Below are positions 1-7,626 of a stretch of DNA of 64,000 nt, one piece after another (position 1 is the first letter of the stretch; each line of letters starts with the position of its first letter). A model generated the notes under the pieces. The model was given only the letters and a program-made list of their open reading frames with translations, did no database searches and was not told where the DNA came from. The position numbers were made by a program, and so were the translations under genes. The DNA lies in the NCBI RefSeq assembly GCF_053078305.1, contig NZ_CP166879.1. One strand, written 5' to 3'.

Positions 1-65
1 GTCCATGCACGAACATGAGCGGGTGCACGGCCTTTTCGTCCCATGGGTTGTAATATCATCATGCA

Positions 66-581
66 TCACCCCCTGACTCGCTTTTCGGCAGCATAAAACT
101 CATCAGACAGAATTTCGGTCATTTTCCGTTTTGCGGAATCATCTTCGCACTGAAGGTAAATAACATTGTCAACGCAGAACCACTTAACGGGGCCAAACAG
201 TATTGCCGAGAAGTCAATGCCCAGCCAGAACAACAGCGCATCGGTTCTGGCATACGTGACGGGCGAATATTCACGCCACAGACTGTTCAGTTCATCAGAG
301 GCAACACGCAGGGTTTTAGGTATACGTGATGTGCGCGGCGTGCAGCTCCAGCCATTCGACGCAGTCGGTTTTCTCCATAAGTCGCGATGAAAAGGATATT
401 TGTCATCCATAAAGCGCAGCCCCTTAAAACAAAATCCACTGATACCGGATACAAATACCGGGCGGCACGCAACATTCAGCACAGCCTCAAGGCGTTTTGC
501 CTCATCTTTTACCGTCTGGCAGTCCTGCTGGTATTTTTGCCACGCAGCCAGCGCGGAAGGGTTTGAAGTTTTAAAGAACAT
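66..581 (-). CDS. hypothetical prophage early-region protein (171 aa)
   Basis: ORF in early operon downstream of gam; start overlaps upstream stop (TAATG); no family recognised. Confidence 0.5.
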   Translation of the reverse strand: MFFKTSNPSALAAWQKYQQDCQTVKDEAKRLEAVLNVACRPVFVSGISGFCFKGLRFMDDKYPFHRDLWRKPTASNGWSCTPRTSRIPKTLRVASDELNSLWREYSPVTYARTDALLFWLGIDFSAILFGPVKWFCVDNVIYLQCEDDSAKRKMTEILSDEFYAAEKRVRG

Positions 582-1114
582 TACGCCACCTCCGCAGAAA
601 TCGCGGCCGGTGCCGCTGTCCGGTCAACAATCAGGTAACGCAGAACGCGCGAGGTGATATTCCGGCCGCTTAAACCGCAGATAATGACGCCCAGGCGGAT
701 GTCGATATACGCCATCACAAACTGGGGCACGCCTTCTTTCATGGCCTGCTCATCAACTTCAGCCACCACATAAACGGTTTCACAGGTCAGAACGCCCTGA
801 GCAAATTCCCACGCCATCGACGGAATATCATGCCCCTCAATCCACGGCAGGGACTTTCTGAAGCTGCACCACTGAACATCATCAGCCGCACATTCCTGGC
901 TGCATTTGCGACGAACCGGCTGCACCGGGCGGGGACGCGGAATATCATAAAAACCGTTACATTCCGTCAGCACGCCTGCATCAACCGCATCACGCAGAAA
1001 ATAAACCATGGAGGATAGCGGCATATTCATTTTTTCTGCCAGAGAACGACTGGTCAGACGGCCAGAAAAACGCAGCCAGCTTTTAACCCCTTCAAGCACT
1101 TTTGCATCAATCAT
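581..1114 (-). CDS. hypothetical prophage early-region protein (177 aa)
   Basis: ORF co-directional with gam; no family recognised. Confidence 0.5.
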   Translation of the reverse strand: MIDAKVLEGVKSWLRFSGRLTSRSLAEKMNMPLSSMVYFLRDAVDAGVLTECNGFYDIPRPRPVQPVRRKCSQECAADDVQWCSFRKSLPWIEGHDIPSMAWEFAQGVLTCETVYVVAEVDEQAMKEGVPQFVMAYIDIRLGVIICGLSGRNITSRVLRYLIVDRTAAPAAISAEVA

Positions 1115-1259
1115 GATTTATTTCCCCACCACATTATTAATGACGATATAAACGTATTTCATATTTCTTAACCCTTATTTTCTGTTTTCAGGCGCAAGCA
1201 GTCCCCTGACGCAAGCGCCATAATTAAAACGATGTGATATTTAAAGATTTAATGCGGTG

Positions 1260-1790
1260 TTATTTATTCAGTCCGGCGTCCTGTTCAAAAGGCTCGACAT
1301 GAAAACTTTCAGCGCCTTTATTCACCTTAATACCAGCAATCCCTTTCACCGCATCCGGCTCCGCCAGGACAGCTTGCTTATTCACTTCCTCTTTCGTGCG
1401 GATGAAGCGCTCAAGCCCCATACGACGCAGCATTTCAATCACACCTTCCACATCACGACTGACGCTGCATGATGGATTTCCCAGCCGCCATGACACCGTT
1501 CCGGTGGTCAGATTGGCAGTTTTGGTTTCGCCGCCGTTCGTCAGCTCATTGCGGTTGGTTTTACACCAGTCATGAATCCCTTTAAAAAGCACTTTGATTT
1601 CTTTTTTAAGGTTTTCAATCTGCGGCGTATAACGGGCGGTGATTTCTGCCACTTCATCATTCATCGCCGTTTCCAGGCGCAGCGCCTCTCGCTGAATATC
1701 ACCCAGAGTGCGGATATCGCGGCTGACTTCTTCGCGGGTCTGTGGTGCGGCCTCGGCTGCGGCCTTTAATTTTGTAACACGTTTAACCAT
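1260..1790 (-). CDS. gam: Gam-like host-nuclease inhibitor / DNA-end binding protein
   Basis: Translation from internal Met (MVKRVTKLKAAAEA...) resembles phage Mu Gam along its length (LETAMND, ELTNGG, TANL, VSWR, FIRTK, PFEQ motifs). Confidence 0.8.
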   Translation of the reverse strand: MVKRVTKLKAAAEAAPQTREEVSRDIRTLGDIQREALRLETAMNDEVAEITARYTPQIENLKKEIKVLFKGIHDWCKTNRNELTNGGETKTANLTTGTVSWRLGNPSCSVSRDVEGVIEMLRRMGLERFIRTKEEVNKQAVLAEPDAVKGIAGIKVNKGAESFHVEPFEQDAGLNK

Positions 1791-1800
1791 TTTGTTTTCC

Positions 1801-2094
1801 TTATTGCAGTGCGCCTGATGCTTTATGCACACGGTGGCGTTTAATGATGGCATCCGCCCCAAAAGCCTGTACAGATGCCTGAAATTCCGCTGAGAGAAGC
1901 TGAATAATTGCAGGACTGTGATACTGGAGAATACTTGCATAAACGTCACAGAGTGACGTCGGGCTGTTCTCCGTATCACGTTCTGTTTTCACATCCACTC
2001 CAATCTTTTCATGCACTTCAACACAGTCATTGCCTGCCAGCTTTTCGTCATGCGAAACATGCTCAAATTCAAAAATAACGCGTACTTTGCTCAT
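1801..2094 (-). CDS. hypothetical small prophage protein, paralog 1
   Basis: Starts MSKVRVIFEFEHV; N-terminus paralogous to the adjacent upstream ORF; SD-like GGGG before the internal ATG. Confidence 0.5.
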   Translation of the reverse strand: MSKVRVIFEFEHVSHDEKLAGNDCVEVHEKIGVDVKTERDTENSPTSLCDVYASILQYHSPAIIQLLSAEFQASVQAFGADAIIKRHRVHKASGALQ

Positions 2095-2098
2095 GGAA

Positions 2099-2371
2099 TT
2101 ACCCCTGCTGATTAAATTCATTACCGTTAATAACCCCGGAAGCCATACCCCTGTCTTTCATGAATGCACTGGCTTTCATTGCCACAAGCTCTGCGAAGTT
2201 TCTGCTTTCTGCCAGCATAACCACCCCAAAAATCATGGCGGGTCCATTATCTTTCTTCTTTATTCCGGTTGAACGTATATCCAGACTTACCCCTCTGTGC
2301 GTGCTGCCATCAGAGTTTTTGCAGATAACATCTTCCTTGTATTCGAAAATAATGCGTACGACTTTACTCAT
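2099..2371 (-). CDS. hypothetical small prophage protein, paralog 2
   Basis: Starts MSKVVRIIFEYKEDV; AGAGGA SD-like sequence before the internal ATG; paralog of 1801-2094. Confidence 0.5.
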   Translation of the reverse strand: MSKVVRIIFEYKEDVICKNSDGSTHRGVSLDIRSTGIKKKDNGPAMIFGVVMLAESRNFAELVAMKASAFMKDRGMASGVINGNEFNQQG

Positions 2372-2445
2372 CCTCTGGCTCTCGTTTTGTTCGGATAACT
2401 GACCCGGCGTCTGACCTGATGACAGAGCCGAACCATGAAGCAACT

Positions 2446-2703
2446 TCATACTTCCCAGTAAACCGTGCATCCGCTTATGCGGGTGGCTTTCACACGGCGG
2501 CGCAGGCCGTTGGTCTTAACGGTGATTTCAATTTCCTCACCACTCCCCTGAACCTCGCCTACCGGCGGCGTGGTTTTCAGTGCAAAACGTTGCGGATAGC
2601 GCTTACTGCGTTCCAGTACCGCACCGGCAAGCTCGGTCAGGCGACGTGCGCTGTTCAGGGAGTCGAATAAATTCATTTTTTTACCGCTGGATTGCATATT
2701 CAT
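2446..2703 (-). CDS. hypothetical small prophage early protein (85 aa)
   Basis: ORF in early operon between the B-like and gam-like genes. Confidence 0.4.
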   Translation of the reverse strand: MNMQSSGKKMNLFDSLNSARRLTELAGAVLERSKRYPQRFALKTTPPVGEVQGSGEEIEITVKTNGLRRRVKATRISGCTVYWEV

Positions 2704-2715
2704 ATAACACCTCGT

Positions 2716-2943
2716 TTAACTGATTTGTTCAGCACCGATAAAACGGCAAATATTGCTGTAAGTTTCTGTCGCACCTTCGCGATCAAGTCCAACAGATATT
2801 GCCATTCGGGTGCGATCATTAAATTCAAAGAGTAAATCGCCACATTCTTCACTGTCAGACATGGAGACTGCTTTGACGTTATCGAAATTAACCAGGTAAA
2901 AGCGTCCGTAAATATCAGGAATATTAAATACCGCCATAATCAC
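2716..2943 (-). CDS. small early protein, possibly Kil-like (75 aa)
   Basis: Position immediately after the B-like gene and size match Mu kil; sequence identity not confirmed. Confidence 0.35.
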   Translation of the reverse strand: MIMAVFNIPDIYGRFYLVNFDNVKAVSMSDSEECGDLLFEFNDRTRMAISVGLDREGATETYSNICRFIGAEQIS

Positions 2944-3872
2944 ACCTGTGAAAGTAATTCAGGGTTGGTGTAAACCTCTTTAAAGGCCGCATTAATATGT
3001 TTTTCTGTCAGCGCCGCGCCTTCACCGCTGGCGGTGAGCCACGCCTGGTTAAGCGTATGTGTCAGAACGCGTAACGCCCCCGGCTTTTCAGCGATAGCCT
3101 GCATGACGGCCAGCTCGGCCTCACCACTGATCCCCCACGCCCTGGCAATGGCCAGCACATCCGCCTTTTTGGCCTTGCGAAGTTGTTTTGTACGGGCAAG
3201 ACGGCTGAACAGGCGCGATAAATCATCAAAGGCGCGGCGTCCACCTTTAAACAATCCGCGCGGGTTACCAATAAGTACCATCCCGATCCCCGTGGCGTCC
3301 TGAATTGCCCGGAGTTGTTCCAGACCGTCAATACCAAGATGATCTGCTTCGTCAACAATCACCAGTCCACGTGTTCCCGTCAGGCGACGGCGGATGGCGC
3401 GGGATAATGCCCCTTTGTTCGCGCGGGTGTAATCAATCCCCAGCGCATCGGCCAGCTCCAGCAAACACTCCGTGACGCTGGAGTGCGCGGGCGACAGGGT
3501 GATCATCCAGGTGTTCGGTTGCTCCTGACAGTAATTACGGGCCGTGGCCGTTTTACCCACACCCGGTACGCCCACAATGACGTTAATACAGCCCATCAGG
3601 CGAACCGCCTGAAACAGTGCGCGCAGCTCCTGGACTGTCTGCGTTTCAACAAACTGTGGCGGCTCGGGCAGTGCGCTTTGTTTATTCCAGTTCTCATACC
3701 AGGAACGCAGGGAAGCAGCCACAGCAGCGTTATCGCCTTTATATTTTCCCTTACGGAAAGCCGATAATGTGCCGTCGGAAATTCCCGCCTCTCTGGCGAT
3801 GGCATACTGCGTCAGTACGCCGCCATCAATAAGTTCATCAATGGTCTTGATTACATCGTTAATATCAGTCAT
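2940..3872 (-). CDS. MuB-like DNA transposition ATPase
   Basis: 310 aa, Walker A GVPGVGKT, N-terminal HTH-like segment, located after transposase as in Mu. Confidence 0.8.
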   Translation of the reverse strand: MTDINDVIKTIDELIDGGVLTQYAIAREAGISDGTLSAFRKGKYKGDNAAVAASLRSWYENWNKQSALPEPPQFVETQTVQELRALFQAVRLMGCINVIVGVPGVGKTATARNYCQEQPNTWMITLSPAHSSVTECLLELADALGIDYTRANKGALSRAIRRRLTGTRGLVIVDEADHLGIDGLEQLRAIQDATGIGMVLIGNPRGLFKGGRRAFDDLSRLFSRLARTKQLRKAKKADVLAIARAWGISGEAELAVMQAIAEKPGALRVLTHTLNQAWLTASGEGAALTEKHINAAFKEVYTNPELLSQV

Positions 3873-3943
3873 ATTATTAACCTCTCATTTGATACCTTGT
3901 TTAATCAAATAACCTGAGTCGCCGCTCGGGTTATTTTTTTATT

Positions 3944-6034
3944 TCAGGCCAGCGGGTCATTTTCTTTTAATTTCGCTTCCAGCAACTGCAATCCCCGCTG
4001 GAAATTACGCTCGTATTCTTCATCAGGTTCATCGTCAGCGACCGGTTGCTGAACGGTCACCGTATTACCCACAGGGCGGTATATGTTTTCCAGCCAGGGC
4101 TCCTGCGGCTTGTGCTCCAGCACGTTGACAACCTCATCCTCGGCATCACGGATTTTTTCCTCTGCGCGTTTACGCATGCCTTTAAGGCGTTGCTGCTGTT
4201 TGTAGTATTCCGCACTAACCGGGAAGGCTTCGCGTTTATTACCGTCCCATACCGCCTCGCAAATCACGCTGCCATCCAGGCGACGTACGGTAATTCGTTC
4301 GGCATCATGAATGTCATAGCTGATAAGCACCTTACGACCATGCTCGTCACGCAGCTCGGGCGCGTAGTAAATATTATTCAGCCAGCGTATTTCACAGCGT
4401 CTTACAGGGCGTTCCACCATCGGCCGGAACATATCCCGCAGCTCAACATCGGACAGCCATTCAATTTCCGTGTCCTCTTCCGCCAGGCGTTTTTTTCTGA
4501 ACTCCGCCGGGCTGTAATGCTTGCCGTTCGGCTTCACCGGTAATTCATCGTGCGGCCGGTTGTTGTACCACTCAACACCGTCACGAATGGCATCAATCAG
4601 TTCAGACCAGGACGGTAAATCACGCATCGCTGACTGCTGCCGGACGTTCAGCCGTTTGCCCTGTTGCAGGGCAGTAAATGCCGAGCGTAAATCGCGGTTG
4701 GTTTTGCGTAACGTCTCGCGATCTGCACCTTTCCCGAAATAGGTGCGGTATTTACGGGCTATGCGCATCGGTAATGTGCGGTTAAGCCGTTCGATAATGC
4801 CTCGTCCCTGCGGATTACCGGCAATCCCGGTCGGGTGATTAATCCCCAGTCGCGGCAGTATCCCCACAACCTCCTTATCCAGGATGTCGGCGGTTTCCCC
4901 GGAGCCGTTATCCGAGTAATACAGAAACGGTTTGCCGTGATGGCGAATGCCGTGCTGTATGGCACCGGCTACGGCGAAAACATTTTCAGCCAGGTCAAGG
5001 CTCCAGCCCACCACAAAGCGCGTGCCACCGTCGATAACAAAGGTCACTTCCGGTGCAAATGGCCGACCGTGAACCGGGTGTGCGCATTTCAGTTTCATGC
5101 CGTGACCGTCACCAATCCAGACATAATTCACCGGCATTTTTGACCAGTCGCGGCGCGTGAATCCCTCAAGCTGGCGGTATTCACTGCCGGTCACCCGGCC
5201 TTTTTGTTTCACCACTTCCGGCAGTTTCTTCATTGCGCGGCGAATGGTGTCATAAGACGGCATGATATCGAGCATATAAGGCTCATCAGCGTGCCGGTGC
5301 TGCCATTCAGCAACAAAATCCTCGTAAGCCTCGGTCATTGGTCGGCCGTTTGACTGGCGATACTGCGCCAGAAATTCGGGCAGCCAGTTAATATCTTCGG
5401 CTTTTATTTCCTGGCGCTTACCCGGTGCCAGTAAAAGCAGGCGTTCAGCGGCGTTCTGCGCCTTGTTAAAGGCCGCAATCCAGCGTTTCAGCGTGATTTC
5501 ACTTAACGCACGGCTGTTTCCCTTTTTGGCGTTCGCCGTCTCAACCATTGCCACAATGCGCTCGTCCAGCTGCGAACGTGCCAGGTTGTCAACGATAAAC
5601 CGGATAGCCTTCGCACAGCTGAAACCAGGTTGTTGCGCGACTTTCAGAACTTCGCTGACGATCGCGATTCGTGCATCAGCCACCTGGCGCTGGTTTTCAG
5701 TCAGGGCATTAAGGCGTTCGACCATCAGTTGTGGTGATCCGCGATATGCCTCCACCGCATCAACCACGGCAGGCGAGCGTCTGGCCTTTGTCACCACTGG
5801 AGCCGGTGATTCATCGACTTTTTGAGTCATCAGTTGCAGGGCGTAGCGTTCACGTAATGCCTGCTGCGTCACTTCAGGTAAACAGTCGATGCTGTATTCA
5901 GTTGCTTTAGAGCCTGAGCGACGACGGGAACAACAGCTTTTCCCTTGTACGTAACGTTGTAATGCCTGGCGAATACCTTTTGTTGTAGCAGGCATTCCGG
6001 GCGCGCCAATCAGTTCTTTTGCAATGACATACAT
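3944..6034 (-). CDS. MuA-like DDE transposase
   Basis: 696 aa ORF directly downstream of ner-like gene; size and position of Mu A. Confidence 0.8.
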   Translation of the reverse strand: MYVIAKELIGAPGMPATTKGIRQALQRYVQGKSCCSRRRSGSKATEYSIDCLPEVTQQALRERYALQLMTQKVDESPAPVVTKARRSPAVVDAVEAYRGSPQLMVERLNALTENQRQVADARIAIVSEVLKVAQQPGFSCAKAIRFIVDNLARSQLDERIVAMVETANAKKGNSRALSEITLKRWIAAFNKAQNAAERLLLLAPGKRQEIKAEDINWLPEFLAQYRQSNGRPMTEAYEDFVAEWQHRHADEPYMLDIMPSYDTIRRAMKKLPEVVKQKGRVTGSEYRQLEGFTRRDWSKMPVNYVWIGDGHGMKLKCAHPVHGRPFAPEVTFVIDGGTRFVVGWSLDLAENVFAVAGAIQHGIRHHGKPFLYYSDNGSGETADILDKEVVGILPRLGINHPTGIAGNPQGRGIIERLNRTLPMRIARKYRTYFGKGADRETLRKTNRDLRSAFTALQQGKRLNVRQQSAMRDLPSWSELIDAIRDGVEWYNNRPHDELPVKPNGKHYSPAEFRKKRLAEEDTEIEWLSDVELRDMFRPMVERPVRRCEIRWLNNIYYAPELRDEHGRKVLISYDIHDAERITVRRLDGSVICEAVWDGNKREAFPVSAEYYKQQQRLKGMRKRAEEKIRDAEDEVVNVLEHKPQEPWLENIYRPVGNTVTVQQPVADDEPDEEYERNFQRGLQLLEAKLKENDPLA

Positions 6035-6035
6035 A

Positions 6036-6284
6036 TCATGACGCCTTTCTCATATAGCTCTTAACCTGGTATCGACTGGGCCAGATTTCTTCAGGCGATA
6101 CCCCAAGAGCATCAGCAATTATTTGCTGATACGGTCGGCAAGGAGTACGTAATACGCTTTTCAGCGAATCCCTGCTGTAACCAGCCTTTAAAGATAAAGA
6201 GCGCAGTGATAAGCCAGCCATGTGTAAGCGCGCCTTGATGATTTCAGGCGGCCAATCGTGATCTGAAACTTCTCTTCTACTCAT
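6036..6284 (-). CDS. ner: Ner-like DNA-binding regulator
   Basis: 82 aa; C-terminal IIADALGVSPEEIWPSRYQ resembles Mu Ner. Confidence 0.75.
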   Translation of the reverse strand: MSRREVSDHDWPPEIIKARLHMAGLSLRSLSLKAGYSRDSLKSVLRTPCRPYQQIIADALGVSPEEIWPSRYQVKSYMRKAS

Positions 6285-6354
6285 ACTTCCTCTATTCTAA
6301 AAAGTTACCCGCGCGGATATTCGTGCGGATATCTGTACGGGTAAATAATGCATC

Positions 6355-6395
6355 ACTAAAAATACCAAATCAAGGTATTTTTGGTATTTTGGATA
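6355..6395. promoter_or_regulatory. operator/promoter region between divergent ner and c genes
   Basis: Inverted and direct repeats aaaatacc / ggtatttt (x2) in the divergent intergenic region. Confidence 0.4.
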
Positions 6396-6474
6396 ATTTT
6401 TGCTTTTATCCTTATTTTTCAATTGGATAAATAGAAAGAAACCTTTCCTTAGAAAAGCACCAAGAGGTATCTTT

Positions 6475-7005
6475 ATGTCGCAGGGAAAAGAACCTGTTAT
6501 TGAACGTATTGGAATGCTTACAAAGCGCTACCCTTCAAGAAGTGCAGCTGCCAGAGCGTGGGGAATCAATATCAACACATTAAACAGCTATTTCAAGGGA
6601 GGACAAACACAACCAGCCCCCAGAGAAAGTATCCTTATACGAATTTCTGAAAGTGAAGGAGTTAGTCTTGAGTGGCTTAAAGAGGGCAAGGGTGAATCAC
6701 CAAATGATGTTGGTATTTGTGGTAATTTTGGTTGTTCTGGTGATAAGGGAGATCAGCTTACACAGATGCTTTCATTCCTTACGAAAGACGAACGAGAACA
6801 GTTAACCAATCTCCTTGCTCGCAAAGGTGTAGAGACGGTTCTGACACTACTGGATAAAGAAAACCAGGATTTATTACAACTAGAAGGCAGGAAGCGCCTG
6901 GCTGCGTTGATGATTGTAGATATGCCAGACGATTGCGTCAGAGAGATTTTGGAAAAAACCGAGACAAGTAGGCAATCAAATCCGGTAGAATCTAAAGCGG
7001 GTTAG
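6475..7005 (+). CDS. prophage repressor (c-like)
   Basis: Divergent from ner, reads toward the prophage end; HTH-like N-terminus; AGAGG SD before the ATG at 6475. Confidence 0.65.
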   Translation: MSQGKEPVIERIGMLTKRYPSRSAAARAWGININTLNSYFKGGQTQPAPRESILIRISESEGVSLEWLKEGKGESPNDVGICGNFGCSGDKGDQLTQMLSFLTKDEREQLTNLLARKGVETVLTLLDKENQDLLQLEGRKRLAALMIVDMPDDCVREILEKTETSRQSNPVESKAG

Positions 7006-7272
7006 TTTGGCGAGGCTGGCCCGTATGTTAGTTGCCATATAGATTTAATGAAGTTTTAAACGCTTTAAAAAAGTTGAGATCGCAGTATCAAAAGTTTTGC
7101 CGATTTTAGAATAAACGATTAATTATTGCACAATCGGTATCAAATAGACTTTAAGCGCTCATCCAGACATCACCTGTTTTATTTCAGTATCTTACAGGTG
7201 ATTTCACCTCCTTTCACTAAAACCCTCGTTGGTATCAAATGATTCACCTGGTTACACCAGGCACAGAGTAAT

Positions 7273-7626
7273 GTGACCCAAATGATGCGCATGTTTAACT
7301 TTATGAAGAGTGTCGGCGCTACCCCCATCGTTAAAGCCATTGATGTTCCCGGTGAAAAACTGAACTCTCTGGAAGAACTGTTCCAAAAAACGATGGAAGA
7401 ATACGAGCAACGTTCTAGTACGTTGGCACAGTTAGCCGATGAAGCGAAAGAACTGAATGATGATTCAACCGTCAATTTCCTGCGCGATCTGGAAAAAGAA
7501 CAGCAGCATGATGGCCTGTTGCTGCAAACCATTCTTGATGAAGTGCGCAGTGCGAAACTTGCGGGTATGTGCCCAGTGCAGACCGACCAACATGTTCTGA
7601 ATGTCGTGTCGCATCAGCTGCATTGA
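7273..7626 (+). pseudogene. ftnB: ferritin-like protein FtnB, 5'-truncated by prophage insertion
   Basis: 117 aa ORF matches the C-terminal two thirds of FtnB; in-frame stop at 7240-7242 and no ferritin N-terminus upstream. Confidence 0.8.

Follow-up and report, generated by a model that had tools for sequence, protein, structure and literature searches.

Which of the two small genes that follow B in a Mu-like prophage of Escherichia coli encodes its Kil protein? The question arises in a 64,000-nucleotide stretch of contig NZ_CP166879.1 (assembly GCF_053078305.1), which we call the window and number from its first letter. Its first ~7256 positions belong to a Mu-like transposable prophage that is inserted in the E. 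coli gene ftnB; they make up its left (early) arm, read from the minus strand. Between positions 2446 and 2943, on the minus strand and directly downstream of the MuB homologue, lie two open reading frames (ORFs) of 75 and 85 codons (Table 1). A preliminary description, made from the letters of the DNA, had placed both ORFs correctly and taken them for small early genes, had suggested that the 75-codon ORF might be Kil-like because it sits where Mu encodes kil and has the same size, and had left the 85-codon ORF unassigned. A Kil-like gene is indeed present just after B, but the assignment fell on the wrong ORF: the protein that matches Kil is the one of 85 residues, and its neighbour belongs to a different family.

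The assignment of the 85-residue protein comes from several comparisons. Against PHROGs, it matches phrog_2679, described as a Kil protein, with E 6.2e-41 and phrog_2743 with E 5e-4, and Mu Kil (AAF01084; gp5, also called cim) behaves reciprocally, matching phrog_2743 with E 1e-42 and phrog_2679 with E 9e-5. Precomputed hits to the Pfam family PF26843 (Kil_protein) are on record for the exact 85-residue protein and for 30 of 40 of its homologue clusters, where they carry no mark, which means E at most 1e-5, and also for Mu Kil homologues. Direct comparison of the two proteins by BLASTP gives 32.5% identity across the C-terminal 40 residues, a profile of the 85-residue family finds Mu Kil with E 9e-8, and hhalign joins the two families with 85% probability (E 6.4e-6, 44 columns) over a C-terminal motif that they have in common. 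The joint full-length alignment with the Mu Kil family is colinear and contains eight invariant columns (G27, R39, P47, I60, G66, R69, C79 and W83), those from P47 onward belonging to the C-terminal motif. Both proteins are small and basic (isoelectric point, pI, 10.2 for the 85-residue protein and 10.16 for Mu Kil), and the gene of each lies between B and gam in the early operon, a placement that recurs in 46 of 48 related loci and in Mu-type prophages. The two differ in that they fall into separate PHROGs, in a 9-residue N-terminal extension of the 85-residue protein, and in that its gene is the second after B, whereas Mu kil is the first. Taken at the sequence level, the 85-residue ORF is thus identified as a Mu Kil homologue that belongs to a divergent subfamily.

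The 75-codon ORF shares with Mu kil its position relative to B and a near-equal length (75 versus 74 amino acids), and these are the grounds on which it could be regarded as the Kil equivalent, with the 85-codon ORF being something else. However, a sequence comparison with Mu Kil and its homologues, which the preliminary description had named as the way to check its proposal, gave no detectable similarity: there was not a single BLASTP match between the 75-codon ORF and Mu Kil, hhalign of the two families returned a probability of 0.4%, none of the Kil PHROGs was matched, and PF26843 was recorded on 0 of 60 homologue clusters. Instead, the protein matches a different PHROG, phrog_3375, over the full length of the profile (E 3.3e-41; residues 3–75 on profile positions 1–73 of 73), and it is acidic (pI 4.3), in contrast to the basic Mu Kil. 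Because every sequence test for Kil singles out the neighbouring 85-codon ORF, we consider it highly improbable that the 75-codon ORF is the Kil equivalent. Scans against NCBIfam, PADLOC and a version of Pfam that does not contain PF26843 returned no match for either ORF.

The argument from position failed because, in this lineage, an extra gene sits between B and kil. In Mu (AF083977), B is followed directly by kil (74 amino acids) and then by E5, E6, E7, E8 and gam. In all 48 related loci, whose hosts include E. coli and Salmonella, the counterpart of the 75-codon ORF, 73 codons long as explained below, starts 2 nucleotides after the stop codon of B and is followed by the Kil-like gene; the latter comes directly after it in most loci, is preceded by a 139-residue homologue of Mu E7 in 11, and is missing from just L033 and L046, both of them deleted elements. 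In Mu-type prophages with a Kil of the phrog_2743 type, kil stands right after B and the 73-residue gene is absent. Since the gene always lies between B and kil here and is absent from Mu-type prophages, it is a lineage-specific insertion. The semi-essential region is also shuffled relative to Mu in another respect: the E7-like gene lies upstream of kil in those 11 relatives and downstream of it in Mu. The shuffled order was noted at 2898–3534 in L002, 3567–4199 in L008 and 4235–4867 in L013, and in the latter two loci the E7-like and Kil-like frames are fused into one ORF of 210 residues.

Both small ORFs are genes: they are conserved, they form part of the early operon that runs from ner through A and B to gam, and orthologues of both occur in the same order in 46–48 of the 48 related loci. 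The start of the first is most likely ATG 2937, which yields a protein of 73 residues. Relatives are annotated at this length by RefSeq and by other gene callers, the alignment to phrog_3375 begins at residue 3 of the longer frame, and a Shine-Dalgarno sequence, AGGTG (2947–2943, minus strand), lies 5 nucleotides ahead of this ATG within the last codons of B. Because the stop codon of B (TGA, 2942–2940) ends 2 nucleotides before ATG 2937, a geometry also found in the RefSeq annotation of relatives, translational coupling of the 73-residue gene to B is likely. The kil homologue has a Shine-Dalgarno sequence of its own, GAGGTG (2713–2708, minus strand), 4 nucleotides ahead of ATG 2703. The conserved core of its product sets in at M10 (ATG 2676), where the annotation of some relatives places the start. 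Pairwise ratios of non-synonymous to synonymous substitution rates (dN/dS) are 0.20–0.39 for the 73-residue gene and 0–0.13 for the 85-residue gene among close relatives, rising to 0.32 against the most distant locus (L004), values that indicate purifying selection on both genes. The exact 85-residue protein is on record in 193 blocks of a public assembly collection. Two ORFs run antisense on the plus strand, at 2419–2670 (83 residues, overlapping the kil homologue) and 2692–2835, and the antisense frames that overlap the kil homologue are also open in L002 and L003; we regarded the two plus-strand ORFs as non-coding, given that it is the minus-strand frames that are under selection.

Together, these observations make it very probable that the 85-codon ORF is the kil of this lineage, expected to be toxic by homology, and that the 73-residue gene, which lacks Kil identity, is a lineage-specific accessory gene of the same early operon. 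Several points weigh against this reading. Identity to Mu Kil is just 22–27% over the full length, and the strong similarity is confined to the C-terminal 44 residues; given such low full-length similarity, the function of the 85-residue protein may have diverged. Its membership in PF26843 is taken from the precomputed hits and not from a scan of our own. The structure model of the protein is poor (mean predicted local distance difference test, pLDDT, 56.6), which leaves the assignment without fold support and the model unusable for a fold search, and a PDB sequence search with the Kil-like profile found nothing. To say that the protein works like Mu Kil is, moreover, a statement at the level of phenotype. 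As for the other gene, one related locus (L049) has retained an intact kil while its 73-residue gene is internally deleted; this deletion, together with the absence of the gene from Mu, implies that the function of the 73-residue gene is dispensable.

What might the 73-residue protein do? An exhaustive profile search with its family in 1.84 billion representatives produced 15 matches, all of them short proteins from a Mu context or repeat-protein noise, and a PDB sequence search with the same profile returned noise alone (E at least 0.21). Its AlphaFold model is confident (pLDDT 84.5; predicted template-modelling score, pTM, 0.73) and shows five strands and, at the C-terminus, a helix; the protein is predicted to form a small PH-like beta-sandwich capped by this helix. 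PH-like structures were matched in fold searches, but the Foldseek E-values against PDB are not significant and LytTR domains score equally; all the BFVD matches, with E 5.7e-4 at best, are viral proteins lacking a name or a characterisation. No Pfam model of a PH or bPH domain matches the protein, although UniRef calls one of its homologues "PH domain-containing". The resemblance to PH-like domains is therefore a generic one of fold, and at 73 residues the protein is shorter than canonical PH domains. In the model, the invariant residues of the family (IPDIYG, NFD, GDL and G-DR) would lie in loops at the ends of strands, which would fit a binding surface. DNA binding is unlikely because of the pI of 4.3, and the protein is most likely a small protein-binding accessory factor, acting either in host take-over or in the modulation of a phage early protein.

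The gene also changes quickly. Across 32 loci (within L006–L049) whose B proteins differ by no more than 2.6%, differences reach 26.7% in the 73-residue protein and 10.8% in Kil, and the divergence of the 73-residue gene is about ten times as fast as that of B. The gene occurs as at least two types of allele (...KAVSMSDSEEC... and ...KVISLAENKEC...), a pattern that points to recombination or fast evolution at this slot. A possible relationship of the 73-residue ORF to Mu gp8/E7 was raised by one 14-residue BLAST match and was rejected: the true E7 homologue is the 139-residue ORF of some relatives, and the two do not align.

How the two proteins might act can be read in more than one way. PHROGs describes both phrog_2679 and phrog_2743 as "Kil protein for bacterial septation inhibition", from which one would expect the 85-residue protein to block septation via FtsZ, as do the Kil of lambda and the KilR of Rac, and to cause filamentation, the phenotype that the preliminary description had offered as a read-out. 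Lambda Kil (47 amino acids) and Rac KilR (73 amino acids), which are inhibitors of FtsZ ring assembly, have the name, the small size, early lytic expression and the PHROGs description in common with Mu-type Kil. However, this one description is attached to three unrelated families, those of Mu Kil (phrog_2743, phrog_2679 and phrog_6381), lambda Kil (phrog_3924, phrog_2461 and phrog_2055) and Rac KilR (phrog_294), and neither lambda Kil nor Rac KilR shows sequence or profile similarity to either ORF of the window (BLASTP and hidden Markov model comparisons at noise level). The kil genes of Mu, lambda and Rac are likewise described as mutually unrelated (PMC3961180), and the passage of that paper that cites Waggoner et al. 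1989 reports that expression of Mu kil turns E. coli cells spherical, interpreted as inhibited elongation, and not filamentous as the other two do. The septation label of Mu-type Kil is thus borrowed from unrelated proteins and is unsupported by the published spherical phenotype, and an experiment that looks for filamentation would be misdirected. Action through FtsZ is accordingly a reading to which we give little credence.

The remaining alternatives concern the 73-residue protein. It might form a functional pair with Kil, the acidic PH-like protein binding the basic one and tempering or targeting it as a chaperone, antidote or specificity subunit. In keeping with such a pair, 46 of 48 loci contain both genes, arranged as B, 73-residue gene, kil, the net charges of their products are opposite (-6.5 and +6.5), and the 73-residue gene accompanies solely the phrog_2679-type subfamily of Kil and never the Mu type. 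Common descent explains this co-occurrence equally well, however; the E7-like gene intervenes in 11 loci, L049 keeps kil despite its damaged 73-residue gene, Mu Kil works without any such partner, and the correlation of distances among close loci is weak (r 0.25), in a Mantel-type test that proved uninformative for the 73-residue protein against either Kil or B. We therefore think a functional pair unlikely. It is also doubtful, and to a similar degree, that the 73-residue protein is an unrecognised early effector of this enterobacterial prophage lineage that is translationally coupled to MuB and partners Kil or redirects it to another host target, so that B, the 73-residue protein and Kil would constitute a host-shutdown module absent from Mu; such a module would be compatible with the fixed slot of the gene, with purifying selection in spite of fast divergence, with the charge opposite to that of Kil and with the restriction to phrog_2679-type Kil. 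Finally, the protein could act on the phage instead of the host, modulating transposition via MuB or MuA (for instance, target choice or immunity). This seems rather improbable: its pI speaks against DNA binding, Mu transposes efficiently without the gene, and the protein has diverged as far as it has while B remained nearly constant, with no co-variation between the two (r = -0.03 in the same test).

The reading we prefer, in which the 85-residue protein is a Mu-type Kil and the 73-residue protein an accessory factor, suggests the following course of events. Once repression is lost, a single early transcript would start at a promoter beside the repressor gene and run through ner, A, B and the two small genes on to gam. 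A promoter and terminator scan, in which counts were at chance level, revealed nothing resembling a minus-strand terminator between B and gam, which fits a single early transcript, as in Mu. By homology to Mu Kil, the 85-residue Kil would then poison the host if it is made without phage replication, and would disturb the maintenance of rod shape, giving rounded cells, rather than septation. The 73-residue protein would act as a lineage-specific, B-coupled, acidic single-domain accessory factor that binds protein and is not essential. Mu can grow without its semi-essential early region, to which kil belongs. The kil gene supplies the cell-killing function of this region, which lowers the survival of infected cells and whose deletion restores it (PMC3325207). 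By homology, at about 25% identity, the best-supported expectation for the 85-residue protein is that it is expressed early, is toxic to the host and makes cells lose their rod shape, rather than causing FtsZ-dependent filamentation.

The surrounding early region is otherwise arranged as in Mu, with ner, A, B, gam and the gp11-like and gp12-like genes in the same order (Table 1). The 90- and 97-residue proteins encoded between kil and gam begin alike, with MSKV(V)R(I)IFE, and are possible paralogues; the PHROG of the larger one is also matched weakly by Mu gp7/E6 (E 0.009), and this protein may be the E6 counterpart. A scan of window positions 1–7400 against Rfam found no RNA families. The prophage ends at ~7256 (within window positions 7240–7626), where the minus strand reads 5'-TGTAACCAGGTGAATC..., and host DNA follows from 7257 on, within E. 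coli ftnB. The prophage breaks this gene, leaving its C-terminal ~117 codons as an ORF at 7273–7626, and the window from 7257 onward is matched in 5415 of 5426 complete E. coli genomes.

Table 1. Genes and open reading frames of the prophage early arm, in window coordinates
Feature	Position	Strand	Matches and remarks
c-like repressor	6400–7005	+	
ner	6036–6284	-	
transposase A	3944–6034	-	
B, MuB-like AAA+ target-DNA activator	2940–3872	-	Pfam Phage-MuB_C, E 2.5e-25, and AAA_22; 48% identity to Mu B
75-residue ORF, from GTG	2716–2943	-	probable gene 2716–2937, 73 residues; phrog_3375
85-residue ORF, from ATG; kil homologue	2446–2703	-	PF26843 Kil_protein; phrog_2679
small ORF, 90 residues	2099–2371	-	
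small ORF, 97 residues	1801–2094	-	phrog_2230
gam, Mu Gam-like host-nuclease inhibitor	1260–1790	-	Pfam Phage_Mu_Gam, E 2.1e-39; 54% identity to Mu Gam
gp11-like gene	581–1114	-	
gp12-like gene	66–581	-	

The early region of this prophage lineage is carried by ~4% of complete E. coli genomes. Within the GenBank phage collection, it occurs only as a Mu-like element inside two Stx-converting prophages (LC727895.1, 6149–14251, and LC727881.1, 67689–75588), and the arrangement was found in no isolated phage of that collection.

Both small genes are members of families that are already catalogued (PF26843 and phrog_2679 for one, phrog_3375 for the other), and apart from their order the locus has the ordinary content of a phage early region, typical of Mu-like prophages. 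What the analysis corrects is an error of annotation by position: in a Mu-like prophage lineage that is common in E. coli and Salmonella, kil stands in second place after B. The residues that are invariant between its product and the Mu Kil family (G27, R39, P47, I60, G66, R69, C79 and W83) could guide mutagenesis toward the target of Mu Kil.
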